Shown here: positions 3,116-26,707 of the stretch, piece by piece
Layout: every line of letters starts with the position of its first letter
How positions within the stretch are numbered: position 1 is the stretch's first letter
DNA from: a virus
DNA: 49,897 bases
Virus genome (UHGV): UHGV-0143838
Strand: one strand, 5' to 3'
Notes under the pieces: model-generated
What the model was told of the DNA's origin: nothing
Database searches by the model: none
The model's input: the letters and a program-made list of their open reading frames with translations, nothing else
Program-made: the position numbers and the translations under genes

Positions 3116-4210
3116 TATAATACCATATACGACAATAACAGCTAGAACATAAAATATTATACCTACCCGTGAAATATCGGAATTAAACCATTTGAACATT
3201 TTCATTAAAGAATAAACAACTCGATCAAGGGACGATGTTTTCTCCCTTACCTCCATACATGACAGCTTGCACTCACTGTCATCTATCTGGTTAAGAATAC
3301 TCATTGCCTCATTTCGCTGTCCTTTTCCCAAGAAATGTCTGGCTAATATAAGTCGTTTGTCCACAGAAGATATATCATCCTGAATTAATCCATATAATAT
3401 ATGGATATCTTTTTGACTCAGTTGTTTCTTGTTTTCTCTATCTTCATAGTAAAAATCGAGGACGAGTGGGTTGTCTGACATACTTTTATCGATAGATTTG
3501 ACAACAGCATCCCATCGATGACTGTCCATATCGGCTAAAGATAATATAGGGTATAACTTCTCAATGACACGTTCCCCTACAGGAGAATAATAAAATCTAT
3601 GATGTGTTTTTTTATAAAATGAGTCTGATATATTGGCTATAACACCTGTATTCTCATTTTCTGTAGTTTCCCAATAAAATCTCATTCCATATTTTTCACT
3701 AATAAATGATAGAAAAGCATGACGTGGAGCATAAACTATTTCTAACTTTTTACTGAATGCTCTTGCAGCATCAAACATAAGATATACGTTCAGATCACAG
3801 TCAGAAAAGTGATTAGCATAAGCCTTAGCTACTGTAGCTGATGGTTTATAATAAAAGTTAGCTCCTAATATTTTGTTTGCACAGTCCAAGAAATTTTCAG
3901 TAGTATCATCAATCCTACATGTATCTTTTACTTTCTTTAAAAAATTATTTATAGCCCCATATGCTTTACGCGCTTCGTTAGAATTAATGATACCATTTTG
4001 CTCATCCATCCTGACGAGGCGATGAGTCAGGTTTAATGGGTCATAGTCCGCAAATACATCCGGGGTATGTTCAAATCGTTCGGCACGCGTTGCACTTTTA
4101 TCTTTGGTCAGAGTTATAGATACGAATGAGATAACAAGCACAGGAAGAATAATTAACGCCACAGGCATTATTAATTTTCGCAAAGTTAATAATTTGATAC
4201 GCAATAACAT
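3044..4210 (-). CDS. hypothetical membrane-anchored protein (N- and C-terminal TM segments)
   Basis: ORF 388 aa; N-terminal hydrophobic anchor (PVALIILPVLVISFVSI) and C-terminal TM (VGIIFYVLAVIVVYGIILIFVG); no family recognised. Confidence 0.5.
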   Translation of the reverse strand: MLLRIKLLTLRKLIMPVALIILPVLVISFVSITLTKDKSATRAERFEHTPDVFADYDPLNLTHRLVRMDEQNGIINSNEARKAYGAINNFLKKVKDTCRIDDTTENFLDCANKILGANFYYKPSATVAKAYANHFSDCDLNVYLMFDAARAFSKKLEIVYAPRHAFLSFISEKYGMRFYWETTENENTGVIANISDSFYKKTHHRFYYSPVGERVIEKLYPILSLADMDSHRWDAVVKSIDKSMSDNPLVLDFYYEDRENKKQLSQKDIHILYGLIQDDISSVDKRLILARHFLGKGQRNEAMSILNQIDDSECKLSCMEVREKTSSLDRVVYSLMKMFKWFNSDISRVGIIFYVLAVIVVYGIILIFVGRMQINNRNKNKGNNLNQV

Positions 4211-4511: not shown

Positions 4512-5768
4512 TTAGTTAGTTGCTGCCTGCGTTGATTTTGTGGCATTGATTTTCAGATTATTCAACATCACCTTATCGACAGGTTGTAGTTGCTGTCCTA
4601 ATAGGGCTGCTAATAAAATATTTGTGTCTTCTGTTCTTTCTATTAGAAGCATCTGTAATCTTAAATCAATGGCCTGCATTCTTGCCTGCTCATGTGCGGT
4701 TTCTTTTTCATCTGTACTGCTGATCTTGACCTGCCATGCATCAGCACCAGTAGTATCCGCATAGCGAGAATAGATCTCATATCTCAACATTTCCCATTCC
4801 GAAGGTTTAGACGGGAACTCTGCTCCGGGGAATAATGTCGCATACTTGGTTTTCACAGACGCATCAGTCCACGCCTGACTTGCTCCTGCTGTAGAACCAA
4901 GTCCTGAGCCGATATTTACCCCTCTTGAGTTTACTGATACATCACCAGATTTCTTTATTGCCAGAATAGAATCAACAGCATTAGTTCCCGCTGTGCTTCT
5001 GGCAACAAAACTTGAGAATGCTGACAGGTATTCGCGTCCTTCTTTCGTATCTTCAAGACTCCTGTCGTTTAGCTGCTGTAGCGGTAAATTACCAATCAGA
5101 TTTCGCTTAGCAGCATCAGCCACTTTCATCTGTTTAACATCATAAGATTGGTTTGAAACTTTATTCCCCTGAGCATCAGATATGGATAACGGTGGTGTGG
5201 TGAGTGAGGTAGCAGATTTATCTTTATCAGCATATGCACCAATAGAACTACATCCACCTCTGTTGTATTTCACATCCTCGTCAGAACAGACTTCAATTGA
5301 GACTCGGCCCATCACGTTATTTTTAGCCTCATTTATACCGGTGCTCGCTCCCGTAAACATTTTCACACTATTTTCAGCTAAAGCAGCTTTAGCTGAGCTT
5401 GTGTTTGATCCTGCCGACCCTCTACCTCCTGCTGCTGTAGCTTCCTCACAAGCATTAGCATCAGGAATTCGCTTAAGGATATTTTGCATTCTTTGCTCCT
5501 GAATAGCTTGGTTTGCATTGCTTATAACAGAGTTCTTTTGATTCTCATTAGCAGTAATATTAGCCTGTGCAAGTTTGTCATTCATTGAGACTAATGTCTC
5601 AATCATTCCATTTCCCATAGATTGAGGGTATGCCCCCATTACGTAAGGTGTCAATACTTCTTCCGTGACGGGCCAGACAGCAAAAGCTGTATTTGAATAC
5701 AGAACAGAAAAACACAAAATCGAAGTCGCTGCTATTCTTTTTATTTTGAAATTACCATGACTCATCAC
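4512..5768 (-). CDS. hypothetical secreted protein (Sec signal peptide)
   Basis: ORF 418 aa; N-terminal signal-like sequence ending AFA; RBS AAGGGAG precedes ATG at 5765; Ala/Ser/Gly/Asn-rich mature region. Confidence 0.55.
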   Translation of the reverse strand: MMSHGNFKIKRIAATSILCFSVLYSNTAFAVWPVTEEVLTPYVMGAYPQSMGNGMIETLVSMNDKLAQANITANENQKNSVISNANQAIQEQRMQNILKRIPDANACEEATAAGGRGSAGSNTSSAKAALAENSVKMFTGASTGINEAKNNVMGRVSIEVCSDEDVKYNRGGCSSIGAYADKDKSATSLTTPPLSISDAQGNKVSNQSYDVKQMKVADAAKRNLIGNLPLQQLNDRSLEDTKEGREYLSAFSSFVARSTAGTNAVDSILAIKKSGDVSVNSRGVNIGSGLGSTAGASQAWTDASVKTKYATLFPGAEFPSKPSEWEMLRYEIYSRYADTTGADAWQVKISSTDEKETAHEQARMQAIDLRLQMLLIERTEDTNILLAALLGQQLQPVDKVMLNNLKINATKSTQAATN

Positions 5769-5975
5769 ACACTCCCTTTAATTCATTACATTCTTTATTA
5801 ATTAATAAATTAAAAATGAATTGTCAATTGTTCTGACTATGCTTAATGATCCCTTATCGTGTTTAAAAAGCATAGATTTTAAAACCAACTCAGATTAATA
5901 TATTCACTCCTGAATCATCATTAAGAGAATTGCCATGTCGATTTATAATATTTAAACAAATTCGGATGGAGTTTT

Positions 5976-6353
5976 TTAGCGACGAAAAGAATCAGGGCGT
6001 TTCCATTCAAACACTGCAGCATGTCTTGCTTTAGTTCTTTCACTTTTAATCTGATTAGCTTTACGCTGAGAACATATTTGTTCACGAGCAACACCCAGAA
6101 CTTTTCTTCTCTCTTCTTTGGTAAGATTCTTACCTTTCACTTTCATTGCCTCACACACTGCATCATCAAGAAATTTCTTTTCCGATACTGTCACGCTTCT
6201 TAAACATCCATGCTTATTCATATTTTTATCCATTTGTTTTTTCTCTTTTTTAATCCCGAGATCTGATTTTTTGTTTCCATCTTCAATATTGGTTCCATTA
6301 AAACTTCCCTCGTTATTATTTGTTACAGAACCTTCTTCAGTTTCGTTTTTCAT
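5976..6353 (-). CDS. hypothetical lysine-rich protein
   Basis: ORF 125 aa, highly basic C-terminus; no family recognised. Confidence 0.4.
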   Translation of the reverse strand: MKNETEEGSVTNNNEGSFNGTNIEDGNKKSDLGIKKEKKQMDKNMNKHGCLRSVTVSEKKFLDDAVCEAMKVKGKNLTKEERRKVLGVAREQICSQRKANQIKSERTKARHAAVFEWKRPDSFRR

Positions 6354-21683: not shown

Positions 21684-21904
21684 TTGAAGTTCAACTGTTT
21701 TGTCATCAGAGACGGGGGAATGGCTAAGTTGTTGTTAAGAGTGTGAACTCGAGAGCATAAAAGTGGATGCCCGACGCGCGGCAAAATGGTAAAAAACAGC
21801 ATCAGTAGTAAGAAAAATTGAGCGAGAGAAAGGAATTTTAATGCAGGGATTTATGCATGACAAAATCAAAAATGCTTTGTAAGTGATTGATTTTGTTGAA
21901 TGAT

Positions 21905-21966
21905 TGGCGGAGAGAGGGGGATTTGAACCCCCGGTAGAGTTGCCCCTACTCCGGTTTTCGAGACCG
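21905..21966 (-). tRNA. partial tRNA-Ser(CGA) (3' 62 nt, serU-like): prophage attachment core, not a functional tRNA
   Basis: Minus strand reads CGGTCTCGAAAACCGGAGTAGGGGCAACTCTACCGGGGGTTCAAATCCCCCTCTCTCCGCCA: anticodon stem-loop (CGA), long variable arm, T-arm GGTTCAAATCC and acceptor end; the 5' half is absent. Confidence 0.8.
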
Positions 21967-22694
21967 ATGATACAGAGTCGAAAAATCAAAGAGTTAAAAA
22001 TTTTTCTTGGAATAAATGTCTTAAAATCGTACACGAAAAATCAATAAATTACATAACATTAAAGAAGAATATTCCAAGCCTTCTTGAGGCCACCACCTGT
22101 TTTCAGGTGTCATTCAGATGTGATTTACCCCAGATTGGGAAAGCACGCTTTTTTTTCTCAGCTTATTCCGTTTTGCCTGTGTGTTGAATAATTCCACTGC
22201 AGTTATATAAAATCAGTAACAGCTGGAAATCATTCAATACTCGCACTATCGAAAGTTCGCCAGCCAGCCGTGGCACGTTCTTGCATACGACGTGCTACGG
22301 TTTCATTTATCTCCGACCGGAAACCTCTTATACAAAGTCGATATGCCAACATCATAGATGATCGCCTACTGGTGGAACTTATATATAAAGCAATAATGAC
22401 CAAACTTTACAGGCGGAGAAGAGCCGCTTCTTTAAACTTTCCTCAATAACAGCATTACTTGTATAATGCATCAGTTCACAATAGAAAAATGCATACTGCT
22501 ATGTTGCCCGGATCATCACGGGCATTTTTTATCCACCCTACCACGACATATTCATACGCTGCCACACAGAACATTTCAATCCACCAGTATGTTTCCGGTG
22601 TTTCACTCTCAGCAACAAACAACAGGAGAACGCATAATCGCAGCATAAAATGCATGATGTAAGGAGCTTATATCGCTCCTTACATTAATATTAT

Positions 22695-25070
22695 TCACTG
22701 GCCAGACAGCGATGCCAGCATGAAATAATGCAGCTCATCATTCCTTACAGACATTATTTCACCAGCCTCCCTGACCAGCTTGCGCTCTCCGGTATCGTAT
22801 TCTTCCATTGTAAGGAGTCCGTCAGAACCAAGCTCCATACGAGTCCCGTAAACCACTTCATATTCCGCCGGATATTCATCACGACACAAAATACCGTAAT
22901 CAAAAGCGTCCAGCCCTTCCTCAGAGAAGACCTTCTGTACGTCCTGAGCAATCACTCCTACATGCCATCTGGCTGCGTTCCCTTTGCTGGACACTGCATC
23001 TCTGAAACGGAACCGACAGATATACCCGAGCAGCTTTCTGGCAACCCTTTTTTCTGCATCCGACAGAATTGTTTCGTCCTGTTTATGAGTCCGGTCTGAT
23101 GTACTGATACTTCCCGTAGCTGAATAAACCTGTGCGGGTCGCCATGAGGCATAACCGATCGAATACGTATTATCTGTATAAGGGCGGAGATTTCCTGATG
23201 AATCTATGCGCCATCTCTTTTCTCCTCCTGTGGCATTTGCATCCTGATTCGTTGCAAAATCAATCACTGTCGCTGACCTGAACACAGATGAACCACCGCC
23301 AATTACCAGCGTGTTATTCCCCTCTGATGCCTGTTGGTCAACTACCAGTATTTTATCCTGATTTTTACCTGAACCACTTTTCGAGGCAGCGATAATACGA
23401 TTAAACTGATCCTCACCATCGCTCTTTTGTGCGATGGTGATAACATTGGACCAGATTGCCTCTCTTTGTCGCTGAAAACCATATTCTCCGCTGTCTGTAG
23501 TGACAGCTTTATATTTTATTCCACCTTCAGCTGACTCCTGCGTTATATAGAATGTCTGGTTATTAGCATTCTTGATGAACACATAATTGTCAGCAGGAAT
23601 GTCATTTCCACTCAGATCTTTAATCGGTGTCGTGGTTGTATGCAGACAAAACCATTTCTGACTCACAGAACGCATATATGCCAGAATTTCAGACAGGGAT
23701 GTGAATACCGTCCCCAACACCGGGTTTACCAACCCCTGGGCACTACGGGGAAATGTTCCAATACTGGCATGAGACACATCAAACCCCGTGTACAACCAGG
23801 CTGCCTGACGAAAATCAATAGCATCTCTGCCAGTACTGAACTCTTTCATCAGAACAATTCCTTTCTGATAAGCCTGTGGTAACCCACGCTCCAGAAAGAT
23901 ATAAAGCGAATATATACTGCCGCCGTCGTCAGAAATACAAATTCCTTCGTTCTCAATGCGCGAAGGTGTAAAACCCTGCCTGGTAAGCACATCTATCATT
24001 TTTTGGGGATGAAGAATGGATTCCTGCTGCTTTACTCCATCCGGAGAAAAGACCTTAACCCCCTGAAACTGGTTAAATCCGGCTGATGCCCCAGTATTAA
24101 AATAGCCACCATAAGAACAGGCAATATAATCGTCTCCCACAGCAATTCCCTGACGTTTTGTGAAGCGTCTTGCATAGCTGTCTGTGCTTTCCGTGATATA
24201 TCCGGAATCATGCAACGGTAATGTGAATGTCCCTGTCCGACGAAACTGAAAATCATACACCGCAAATACTGTGCGGGTGATCAGGCCTCCCACTTCCGGT
24301 GCTGACTGTTCAACCACCCAGCGGTTTTTACGATAGCTGAACTGGTTGTAAACACCGACATCATGTTCATCAATTAACGGCAATACTGAACCAGAAATTG
24401 CCCCATCAAGCGAAAACTGTTTCAGTAATCCATTTTCTCCTGACATGAACAAACGTAATCCACCGTAATCCGTTGTCACCACAAGGCCTTCGCTGACAAC
24501 GCCACGACCTCCATTATCGACATAATAATATCCCTCATATTCGCCGGATGTTGTGTACTGAACTATAACGTTCCGTGTCTGCTTTGGCTCAACGGTATAA
24601 CTCAGATAGATTTTTTCTCCTGTCACCACAAATCCCTGTGGATACATATATTCCGCACCAGACTGAGCAGCCAGCACCGTATCGTAGTCCGGGAATAATA
24701 ACGGCAATTCCATTAAGACACTACGGGAATGGTTAGTGTACAGATTGTTCAATGAACCAGCTTTTACATCCTGTAACCCCAGATTTTCAAGAGCGCGTTC
24801 TACCGTGCCATCCGATTTGATATCGCCAAACGGATTTTTGCGGCTTAACAGCAGCGCACGAAGCGCGGTAAGCAGCTGGTCGTGCCGCGCCTTCTCCAGA
24901 CTGGCACCGGAGGCCTCCACCACGCTGCAAAGTTCTTCCTGCAACATGTCAAAGTAGTCATCATCCAGATCGGTGGCAGGCGTGCCGGTCTGGGGGTTAC
25001 CACGGGTAAAACCGTTCTTACCCGCGCCGAACTTATCCTTCTGCGCGGTTTTCGTGTCTATACGATGCAT
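22695..25070 (-). CDS. tail fibre protein with C-terminal intramolecular chaperone (peptidase S74-like) domain
   Basis: 791 aa; last gene of the tail module; C-terminal [17 protein letters not shown]...GLLTMEEYD resembles self-cleaving tail-fibre/endosialidase chaperone domains; no separate tail-fibre assembly gene follows. Confidence 0.8.
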
Positions 25071-25073
25071 GGA

Positions 25074-25658
25074 TTACTCCGGATATTTGAAAATTACGTA
25101 GGTATGCGAAGGGCAGAGTTTGTTAAGCACGCACTCGACAACGGTGTCGCCCCAGATACGCAGTGCGGAATCACAGGGATCGCCACATGTCATCCAGGTG
25201 GTGTTGGTGGCGGCTGGCATGTTGACCTGCCAGTAATACCGCCATTCCGTCGCATTCACTGCGTCAGTACAGGCCGATGAGCAGGTGAACGTGCTTTTGT
25301 CGTATCGCGTGATGGTGGCGTCTGGTCTGCCCAGGGCAGCAAGCTGTGCAAGGTAAAAATCCTCATTGATGCCGCCCGCCAGATTAACCTTCGCATCCAG
25401 CCGTTGCTGACGCTGGCGAAGGGTCTGCGTTCCCGCCGGAATACATTCATCCGGCAGGCCGCACAGACGCTCCCAGCGGTTTATCAGTTCAGTGGTGGTG
25501 CGCAGGTCCAGCTCCCGCATCAGGGCATCCGCACGCTGATGAACGCGGGTTAATGACGGTGCCGCACCGGCAATCGCTGGATCGCTGGATGACCACGCCG
25601 GACCGGGGGGCAACAGTGCCGACAACAGACGGATGTAATCATCGTTTGTCACGTCCAT
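25074..25658 (-). CDS. Mu gp48-like tail protein (DUF2313/YmfQ-like)
   Basis: 194 aa between baseplate J and tail fibre, the canonical position; overlaps the J-like gene by 10 nt. Confidence 0.65.
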
Positions 25659-26707
25659 GAAATCGTCCCCAGTACCGCCAGTTCATTTTTTGCAATGGAG
25701 ATATTGTCTGCCGGTGCAAGCAACTGATGGCTGTATTCCCCGTTCGCACCGGAAATCGCTTCACTGATACGCGACACCTTCAGTTCTCCCTGCGGATAAC
25801 CATCACGCAGCAGGAACGAACGCAACTCGGCGGTGATGGCAGCCCGTATTTCCGGTGTGTCCGGCGTCACGCGGATATGAAAATCCACTTTATGCGCCAC
25901 CGGCCTGAATACATATAAATCAGAGCCTGCCACCGGGGCCAGTGGCCCGATATGTTGTCTTGCCGCCGTTTCCGTTGATTCTTCCGGAATGGGATTAATC
26001 AGGTCACTGCTGGCAATCATCACACCGACAGTTCCCGTTCCCATCCAGTGACGGTATGTCCATGCGCGGGTAATGCCGGGCACTTCTTTAGCCCAGACGA
26101 CATAGTCCCCGTCAGCCCCGCCCTGAGGCGTCCAGTAATACCGCTCAATGACGCGGGCGCGCCACGTTTCCAGATCTTCAGTATCGAATCCGCCAGTCAG
26201 GGTATCTGCAACACCGGAAGACGGCAGACCATTCACCGGCGTGACCAGGATTAATGCCGTACCGTCGTCAGCGTTACCGACCGCGCCTGTAGTTGAGCAA
26301 GTGATCGGCGCACGCAGGACACCACCGGAGCTGGTTGCATCGGCAGTTGCCGTGTACTGAACCAGGTCATCGCGCTGAATCACGCTCCCGGCAGTCACCT
26401 TCAGGCCATCGCTGACACCTTCCCAGCGCATATACCCGCTGGCAGCCGTGGCCCCCTTGCGCGGACACCGTTTCATCGCAGCATGTCGTGCCAGCCAGGA
26501 CTCATCGCACAGGTCAGGCAGCATATTCATTGCCAGATAATCGATGTACCCATAAACCGTATGCAGCGCCGCCGCATACACCTTTGCCCGCACGTCTTCA
26601 TCCATGCGCCGGAGCGTGTCGCTGACGTCCAGCCTGGCGAATAAATCGTTACGGAGCATACTGATATTTTCTGCCAGCGTCGGGCGCTGAAATTCACTGT
26701 CCGCCAT
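25649..26707 (-). CDS. baseplate J-like protein (Mu gp47-like)
   Basis: 352 aa; size and position downstream of the W/gp46-like gene; overlapping start and stop with neighbours. Confidence 0.8.

Follow-up and report, generated by a model that had tools for sequence, protein, structure and literature searches.

Probable replacement of the invertible host-range module of an SfV/e14-like Escherichia coli prophage by a cassette encoding a receptor-binding protein with its own predicted chaperone

The virus genome UHGV-0143838, analysed here over its full 49,897 nucleotides (the window), carries on its minus strand at 22695..25070 an open reading frame (ORF) of 791 codons that starts with ATG and is uninterrupted, according to the ORF list and its translation. 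We put at about 80% the probability that this gene encodes a functional modular receptor-binding protein (RBP) of an SfV/e14-like prophage and that it arrived as a cassette which replaced an invertible host-range module. The fibre region is 100% identical to that of E. coli FDAARGOS_1259, and the window is E. coli DNA; its host element is an SfV/e14-like E. coli prophage with a Mu-type contractile tail. The gene and the parts of its product are as follows.

22695..25070, minus strand: tail-fibre / receptor-binding protein gene, intact, 791 codons, stop codon at 22695-22697
24774..25070, minus strand: N-terminal baseplate adapter, amino acids 1-99, constant region of the StfP / SfV ORF21 type, assigned from sequence matches
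23781..24740, minus strand: predicted five-bladed beta-propeller, amino acids ~111-430, with the conserved polar residues E194, K305, R306, Q307, E373 and E375
23466..23780, minus strand: conserved alpha/beta domain after the propeller, amino acids 431-535, predicted local distance difference test (pLDDT) 75-88; its first ~85 residues belong to a conserved module of ~400 amino acids
23259..23465, minus strand: stalk segment, amino acids 536-604, pLDDT 35-55
23100..23258, minus strand: distal tip or pre-cleavage stalk, amino acids 605-657, sharing homology with the EndoNF stalk and with the final ~50 residues of mature T5 pb1
22698..23099, minus strand: Peptidase_S74 intramolecular chaperone, amino acids 658-791; Ser658 codon at 23097-23099, Lys663 codon at 23082-23084, cleavage predicted between Thr657 and Ser658

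The S74 domain forms the extreme C-terminus of the fibre, from amino acid 658 to the stop codon, and follows a conserved stalk end. The Pfam model Peptidase_S74 (PF13884) matches amino acids 658-720 with E=1.3e-9 and 38.6 bits at a curated cut-off of 22. A phmmer search against the PDB sequences returned the chaperone-bearing ends of T5 pb1 (4uw8, E=1.2e-17), phi29 gp12 (3gud, 2.3e-16) and the K1F endosialidase (3gw6, 5.7e-14), as well as the phage tail fibre 7y5s; with amino acids 603-657 it returned the C-terminus of mature T5 pb1 (4uw7 and 5aq5, E about 1e-4). The segment S658-D-R-T-H-K663 aligns with TADARLK of T5 pb1, TANGERK of EndoNF and SDERHK of phi29 gp12. The former two are Ser-to-Ala crystallisation mutants, SDERHK represents the first residues of the released phi29 gp12 chaperone, and Lys663 aligns with the lysine of all three. 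Since SDRTHK matches the Ser-to-Ala positions, the start of the phi29 chaperone and their lysines, the catalytic Ser-x4-Lys dyad occupies the correct register at the N-terminal border of the S74 domain; both dyad codons were checked. The predicted fold of the domain resembles 3gud, 3gw6 and 4uw8. The low pLDDT of amino acids 536-604 is what modelling just one chain of an intertwined trimeric stalk would be expected to give. All features of the class that can be tested in sequence were found, and on this ground the fibre belongs to the S74 class with a C-terminal intramolecular chaperone domain (CIMCD). The first-pass annotation, made from the letters alone, had noticed a self-cleaving chaperone of the endosialidase type at this place, and both the profile score above cut-off and the alignment of Ser658 and Lys663 with known dyads bear it out.

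A separate tail-fibre chaperone, Tfa, was sought in the entire 49.9-kb window by tblastn with four Tfa proteins of related prophages, and the best match had E=0.36, in line with the absence of Tfa claimed earlier. The BASEL study regards an intramolecular chaperone and a separate Mu-like Tfa as alternative equipment of fibres (PMC11990801), and this either/or agrees with the gene content of the present locus.

The origin of the gene becomes apparent from comparison with a related prophage of strain 2A (L003), which presents the canonical module. Behind the same baseplate genes it carries a fibre gene (220 amino acids) and tfa, then, in inverted orientation, tfa' and an alternative fibre end, and finally pinE; two matches to the crossover-site consensus (3854-3873 and 5433-5452) border the invertible segment. 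Window and L003 share 96.5% identity over a stretch that begins in the baseplate genes and ends at window position 24775 (L003 3869). This point falls inside the left crossover site of L003, at fibre codon 99, and the homology restarts at 22366, 64 nt before the end of pinE. Because it stops at 24775 and restarts at 22366, the intervening 22367-24774 (codons 100-791 plus 328 bp) is, judged by this comparison, a replacement cassette. Relative to the L003 layout the window lacks the variable fibre end and the alternative one, both tfa copies, 164 of the 184 codons of pinE, and the second crossover site. The following traces mark the cassette boundaries.

24768..24793, minus strand: degenerate invertase crossover site CTCTTGAAAATCTGGGGTTACAGGAT, 16 of 26 positions kept; left cassette junction
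22367..22656, no strand assigned: non-coding 3' tail of the replacement cassette, in E. coli found only with the cassette
22273..22366, minus strand: pinE 3'-end relic and ~30 nt downstream; right cassette junction; last 20 codons at 22306-22365, AIIYDVGISTLYKRFPVGDK followed by the stop

The relic is well recognizable: with PinE residues 165-184 as query, tblastn aligns 22306-22365 at 95% identity (E=7e-8), 22273-22366 has 94.7% nucleotide identity to L003 6001-6094 (pinE being 5510-6064), and pinE is annotated under the relic match in many genomes. An intact invertase gene was not found next to the fibre locus, where PinE residues 165-184 alone remain, and the fibre region of the window contains no crossover site matching the consensus with 3 mismatches allowed. 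The earlier claim that an invertase or host-range switch is absent needs to be narrowed accordingly: it stands for a working Gin/Pin enzyme and for a crossover site matching the consensus, and it fails to account for the 20 codons of pinE left behind.

Window positions 22533-24881 recur with 97% nucleotide identity in a different Mu-like prophage at another chromosomal site, where the fibre is fused to 63 unrelated N-terminal amino acids; the comparison across related prophages proposed in the first-pass annotation thus yields both the canonical module and the cassette on another Mu-like backbone. Over 727 codons the two copies differ by 35 synonymous and 10 non-synonymous codon changes, and this synonymous excess indicates that the fibre gene is under purifying selection. 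The second copy keeps the dyad and the motif around it, H662R being the sole nearby change. In complete E. coli genomes the cassette was found in 58 of 5426, always at 99% identity or above and including an O25b:H4-ST131 strain. One other prophage has this fibre gene as its final phage gene, and in other phages lysis genes or unrelated genes come immediately after it.

The central part of the protein was modelled with AlphaFold2 as a monomer of amino acids 100-791 from an alignment of 19 sequences (mean pLDDT 75.6, predicted template modelling score 0.58). The high-confidence region, amino acids ~111-430, contains 20 beta-strands in the model. No Pfam or NCBIfam model matches amino acids 100-600. 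The best fold matches of the predicted propeller are the platforms of staphylococcal and Brochothrix phage RBPs, and it also resembles, besides phi11 Gp45, glutaminyl cyclase and GH43-type folds; the 80alpha and P68 RBPs are among the further Foldseek matches, and viral structure models matched include a Staphylococcus myophage tail fibre (E=5e-34) and the GA-1 neck appendage. The suggestion of an unusual receptor-binding domain in the middle of the fibre has therefore gained substance in the form of a predicted five-bladed propeller of the staphylococcal-phage platform type. A sequence link to phi11 Gp45 was not detected by phmmer against the PDB sequences (no match to 5efv at E<=1), and the modelled relation to this protein is at the level of the fold only. 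A true homologue does occur in a staphylococcal siphophage, where a protein at the RBP gene position shares 31% identity over 418 amino acids (E=6e-59).

A word-indexed homologue search with the propeller alone gave 5 proteins only, and an exhaustive search was used instead. It returned 285 clusters at 50% identity (E<=0.001), consistently aligning to amino acids ~114-514. Among 60 diverse members (22-62% identity) K305, Q307 and E373 are invariant, and E194, R266, E375 and D419 nearly so. An S74 domain terminates 19 of these 60 members, and their N-terminal anchors comprise those of T7 tail fibre, BppU_N, Tail_spike_N, P2 tail-collar, Mtd_N and an endosialidase N-extension; homologues with the same central and C-terminal parts sit on T7-type, P22-type, TSP1-type and P2 tail-collar N-terminal adapters. 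Two family members have a fused GDSL esterase. In the model the invariant and near-invariant residues fall at the first strand or immediately ahead of it, in one blade after another. In five-bladed propellers the start of the first strand of each blade lines the central cavity, and the polar cluster of E194, K305, Q307, E373 and E375 probably does so here.

A surface glycan is the most likely ligand of the propeller. Whether the propeller would also cleave or deacylate this glycan is close to an even bet; an enzyme is favoured by the acid/base residues that are invariant throughout the family and by its use as the sole spike on podovirus anchors. It is conceivable, though we would rather bet against it, that the ~400-residue module (amino acids ~114-514) represents an unnamed family of glycan-active enzymes with an active site formed by E194, K305, Q307, E373 and E375. 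Such a family, held with the same reserve, would be common to Gram-positive phage RBPs (Staphylococcus, Bacillus) and to tailspikes or fibres of enterobacterial, Aeromonas and Psychrobacter phages; if true, this would be a cross-envelope depolymerase or esterase fold missed by current depolymerase catalogues and by Pfam. A characterised member of the family was not found in the literature, and the paper on E. coli tailspike modularity and the BASEL paper do not treat the propeller. The Dpo52 paper, which mentions phage ST1UNAM and was considered as a possible source of data on a homologue, was discarded, as it concerns an unrelated beta-helix spike.

The propeller may instead be a pure lectin-like, non-catalytic receptor binder, as proposed for the phi11 Gp45 platform, with the polar residues holding a sugar or a structural metal ion. 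This view comes only slightly short of even odds. Central metal ions are present in five-bladed propellers such as olfactomedin and glutaminyl cyclase, and the GDSL esterase fused in two members suggests that a different domain provides catalysis when it is required. The top fold matches, moreover, are staphylococcal and Brochothrix RBP platforms, for which binding alone was proposed (PMC4901313, PMC12917162). A quite different identity is implied by phage records. Homologues with ~37% identity (L004 2515-5094 and other records, from lytic coliphages and Salmonella phages) are named "endo-N-acetylneuraminidase", the S74 domain was first described in endosialidases, and End_tail_spike gives a weak match at amino acids 621-657 (E=0.096), all of which could point to an endosialidase acting on the K1 capsule. 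We regard this as very improbable. No catalytic-domain family matches the protein, the End_tail_spike score of 13.2 bits lies below the cut-off of 25 and its location is in the stalk, the PDB matches to EndoNF are restricted to the stalk end and the chaperone, and the predicted five blades resemble phi11 Gp45, glutaminyl cyclase and GH43-type folds rather than the EndoNF catalytic domain. The endosialidase name on the homologues probably spread from the common S74 domain.

The RefSeq annotation would make the locus the remnant of a decayed gene, with a truncated stfP pseudogene ahead of an unrelated fragment. The Prokaryotic Genome Annotation Pipeline (PGAP) assigns codons 1-100 to an "stfP" pseudogene ("incomplete, missing C-terminus") and calls a separate 326-amino-acid coding sequence, "tail fiber domain-containing protein", which starts at Met466; codons 101-465, that is the propeller, carry no annotation between them. 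The adjoining pinE is truly a relic and a few genomes have an insertion sequence in the gene, in keeping with decay. Against this stand the single uninterrupted frame of 791 codons, the one cluster of full-length 791-amino-acid proteins with its 365 member sequences, the strong synonymous excess between the two cassette copies, the full-length homologues in many phages and the presence of all head, tail and lysis genes of the prophage. The remnant interpretation has hardly any chance of being correct, and the RefSeq split of the 791-codon ORF is wrong. Improbable too, if less extremely so, is that the S74 domain is kept rather than released, or that folding depends on a chaperone gene at another place in the genome: genes for helper chaperones may lie at a distance from the fibre gene, and cleavage of this fibre is a prediction. 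The intact dyad and motif with their conservation in the second copy, the negative tblastn search for Tfa-like sequence, and the gene order in other prophages and phages, in which the fibre comes last or is directly followed by lysis or unrelated genes, all speak for release and self-sufficient folding.

The preferred interpretation, a functional modular RBP brought in by a cassette, can be formulated as follows. Amino acids 1-99 would serve as a constant adapter plugging into the wedge of YmfQ/Gp48 and Baseplate_J. Amino acids ~111-514, the five-bladed propeller with a small accessory domain, would bind a glycan of the host surface and possibly process it, and amino acids ~536-657 would make up a trimeric stalk with a tip like that of T5 pb1 at its end. 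If EndoNF, T5 pb1 and phi29 gp12 are a guide, the three C-terminal domains (amino acids 658-791 of each chain) would start the stalk on trimerisation and folding; afterwards the Ser658-Lys663 dyad would cleave the Thr657-Ser658 bond, upon which the ~15-kDa chaperone would depart and the T5-like tip (amino acids 605-657) would be left at the distal end. An intramolecular chaperone of this kind would make a separate Tfa unnecessary. The region 22367-24774 would be a horizontally moving cassette that has overwritten the ancestral module, with its junctions in the crossover site and 20 codons before the end of pinE, and the replacement would have locked the phage into one receptor specificity. We infer autocleavage, trimer assembly and the ligand, the first two from the precedents of EndoNF, T5 pb1 and phi29 gp12.

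Several points weigh against this interpretation or parts of it. The junction at the crossover site may simply mark the boundary between the constant and the variable part of the fibre and not an invertase-mediated event. Autocleavage is deduced from an alignment, and the structure is a monomer prediction from 19 sequences in which residues 535-600 are unreliable. Alignment by hhalign of the 60-member family profile to phi11 Gp45 gave a probability of just 5%. The central-cavity placement of the invariant residues is derived solely from their position at the starts of inner strands. Finally, the nearest solved relatives, the phi11 Gp45, 80alpha, P68 and NF5 RBPs, are described simply as binders (PMC4901313, PMC12917162).

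Comparison with known systems places the individual parts of the fibre in different phage groups. With EndoNF, T5 pb1 and phi29 gp12 it shares an S74 domain of the same family at the extreme C-terminus, the register of the Ser-x4-Lys dyad (SDRTHK here, SDERHK in phi29 gp12), the conserved stalk or tip motif of ~50 residues in front of the domain and, by prediction, the fold (3gud, 3gw6, 4uw8). The passenger differs: a predicted five-bladed propeller on a Mu-type myovirus adapter here, in contrast to a six-bladed sialidase in K1F, a beta-helical fibre tip in T5 and a beta-helix in phi29. The propeller platform, as predicted, is common to the stem-platform-tower RBPs phi11 Gp45, 80alpha RBP, P68 gp17 and Brochothrix NF5 gp18, and this propeller type is otherwise described only in RBPs of Gram-positive phages. 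The triple coiled-coil stem with iron of these RBPs is replaced here by the StfP/SfV-type adapter, the C-terminus consists of a T5-like tip and S74 instead of tower domains, and the host is Gram-negative. The beta-propeller phage depolymerases of DepoScope and of the Klebsiella fold classes are alike in having a propeller as receptor-binding domain on exchangeable anchors, often with an S74 end; the sources searched record a proven substrate or activity for none of the members of the ~400-amino-acid family, which also falls outside all Pfam and NCBIfam models.

The locus itself corresponds to the invertible modules of e14 (StfP/StfE-Tfa-Pin), Mu (S/U-S'/U'-Gin) and P1 (Cin), with the constant N-terminal fibre part, the baseplate genes and the crossover and pinE relics remaining. 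Unlike these modules it holds a single fixed and, as proposed, self-chaperoning cassette, and the Tfa gene, the two inverted 26-bp sites and an intact invertase were not found. Directly upstream of the fibre gene lie Mu Gp48/YmfQ (25074..25658) and Baseplate_J (25649..26707), both recognised by Pfam, and the prophage gene set is complete with an HK97-type head, a contractile tail and lysis genes. The fibre N-terminus is matched by PHROG tail-fibre N-terminal families and is 94% identical to amino acids 1-102 of the fibre of L003, the canonical relative. It is also 71% identical to amino acids 1-149 of the short tail fibre of SfV (ORF21) and SfII, which have the same Mu-like tail module; past residue ~100-150 the receptor-binding parts are unrelated.

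The locus is of modest interest in two respects, the visible replacement of a host-range switch by a cassette that appears to chaperone itself, and the propeller module that has no family model. It may show in one place how temperate coliphages change host range, a self-contained RBP cassette overwriting the whole invertible switch of fibre, chaperone and invertase, and this would be possible because a binding domain with its own chaperone needs no partner gene. It also exposes an annotation problem, since RefSeq holds a pseudogene and a fragment with the receptor-binding domain unannotated and phage records call the homologues endosialidases. With at least 6 kinds of N-terminal anchor, 285 clusters and no family model, the propeller module is a reasonable target in the search for depolymerases or RBPs, and also where phages or tailocins are to be engineered against lineages of extraintestinal pathogenic E. 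coli such as ST131, a lineage that includes cassette carriers.

The stretch between the fibre stop codon and the prophage attachment (att) fragment, 21967-22694, comprises 728 bp and is non-coding. Pfam and PHROG profiles matched none of the ORFs of at least 40 amino acids located within 21684-22694, and the short ORFs do not keep their frame in the second cassette copy (those of 59 and 61 amino acids called in the cassette 3' tail lie in different frames in the two copies); the earlier statement that this stretch contains no convincing ORF is thereby confirmed. Small ORFs at 22476..22655 (minus), 22230..22403 (minus), 22459..22662 (plus), 22270..22449 (plus) and 21735..22034 (minus) were considered as a hidden chaperone or moron gene and rejected, having no family match and a different frame in the second copy. 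The cassette tail 22367..22656 is matched only by genomes that carry the whole region. Two further features were identified here.

22657..22685, minus strand: hairpin with a stem of 11-13 bp, 9 nt past the stop codon; terminator-like with a weak T-run
21905..21966, minus strand: att fragment, the 3' 62 nt of a tRNA-Ser gene, prophage end; exact match to the annotated tRNA-Ser of other E. coli

The att fragment, already proposed in the first-pass annotation, is real: its 62 nt are identical to the 3' part of the tRNA-Ser gene, are unique within the window, and match a gene that occurs in 5422 of 5426 E. coli genomes. ARAGORN found no complete tRNA. In the other carrier genomes listed the match begins at 21905, and the sequence to its left is not one that they have in common with the window. 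On that other side the fragment adjoins an island of low G+C content (~30-43%, 1-21904) with genes for RepL, two H-NS-family proteins, a 904-amino-acid DotA/TraY-family protein, an Mrr_cat restriction endonuclease, DUF4756 and DUF6387. The island has the look of another mobile element, arranged in tandem with the prophage at a single tRNA-Ser site.

Between the pinE relic and att, ~320 bp (21976-22295) recur with ~95% identity as the end piece of lambdoid prophages that are integrated at different chromosomal positions (L011 5001-5320). This stretch says little on the history of the prophage because it also ends lambdoid prophages elsewhere; a 55-amino-acid ORF in the lambdoid segment is annotated as "capsid protein", probably a misnomer. 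A sub-threshold Rfam match to the prophage small RNA AgvB (anti-GcvB) is located at 22477-22530 on the plus strand, opposite to the fibre gene (22.9 bits at a gathering score of 56, E=0.028 on 321 bases), and ends in a strong terminator hairpin at 22505-22524 with a T-run.

In a few carrier genomes (H5, H91 and H92, all E. coli chromosomes) the match is split by the IS3-like element ISEc52, which in H91 and H92 lies inside the fibre gene. Two ORFs of low G+C content (~39%) on the minus strand of the prophage deserve mention. One of 173 amino acids (30173-30694), between the tape-measure and DNA-circularisation genes, is without a Pfam or PADLOC match and may be a moron in the tail module. The other (44953-46344), just upstream of the holin-endolysin genes, codes for a 463-amino-acid AAA_16 / STAND-like ATPase with a weak mad8 match in PADLOC (E=2e-4) and is possibly an accessory or defence gene.

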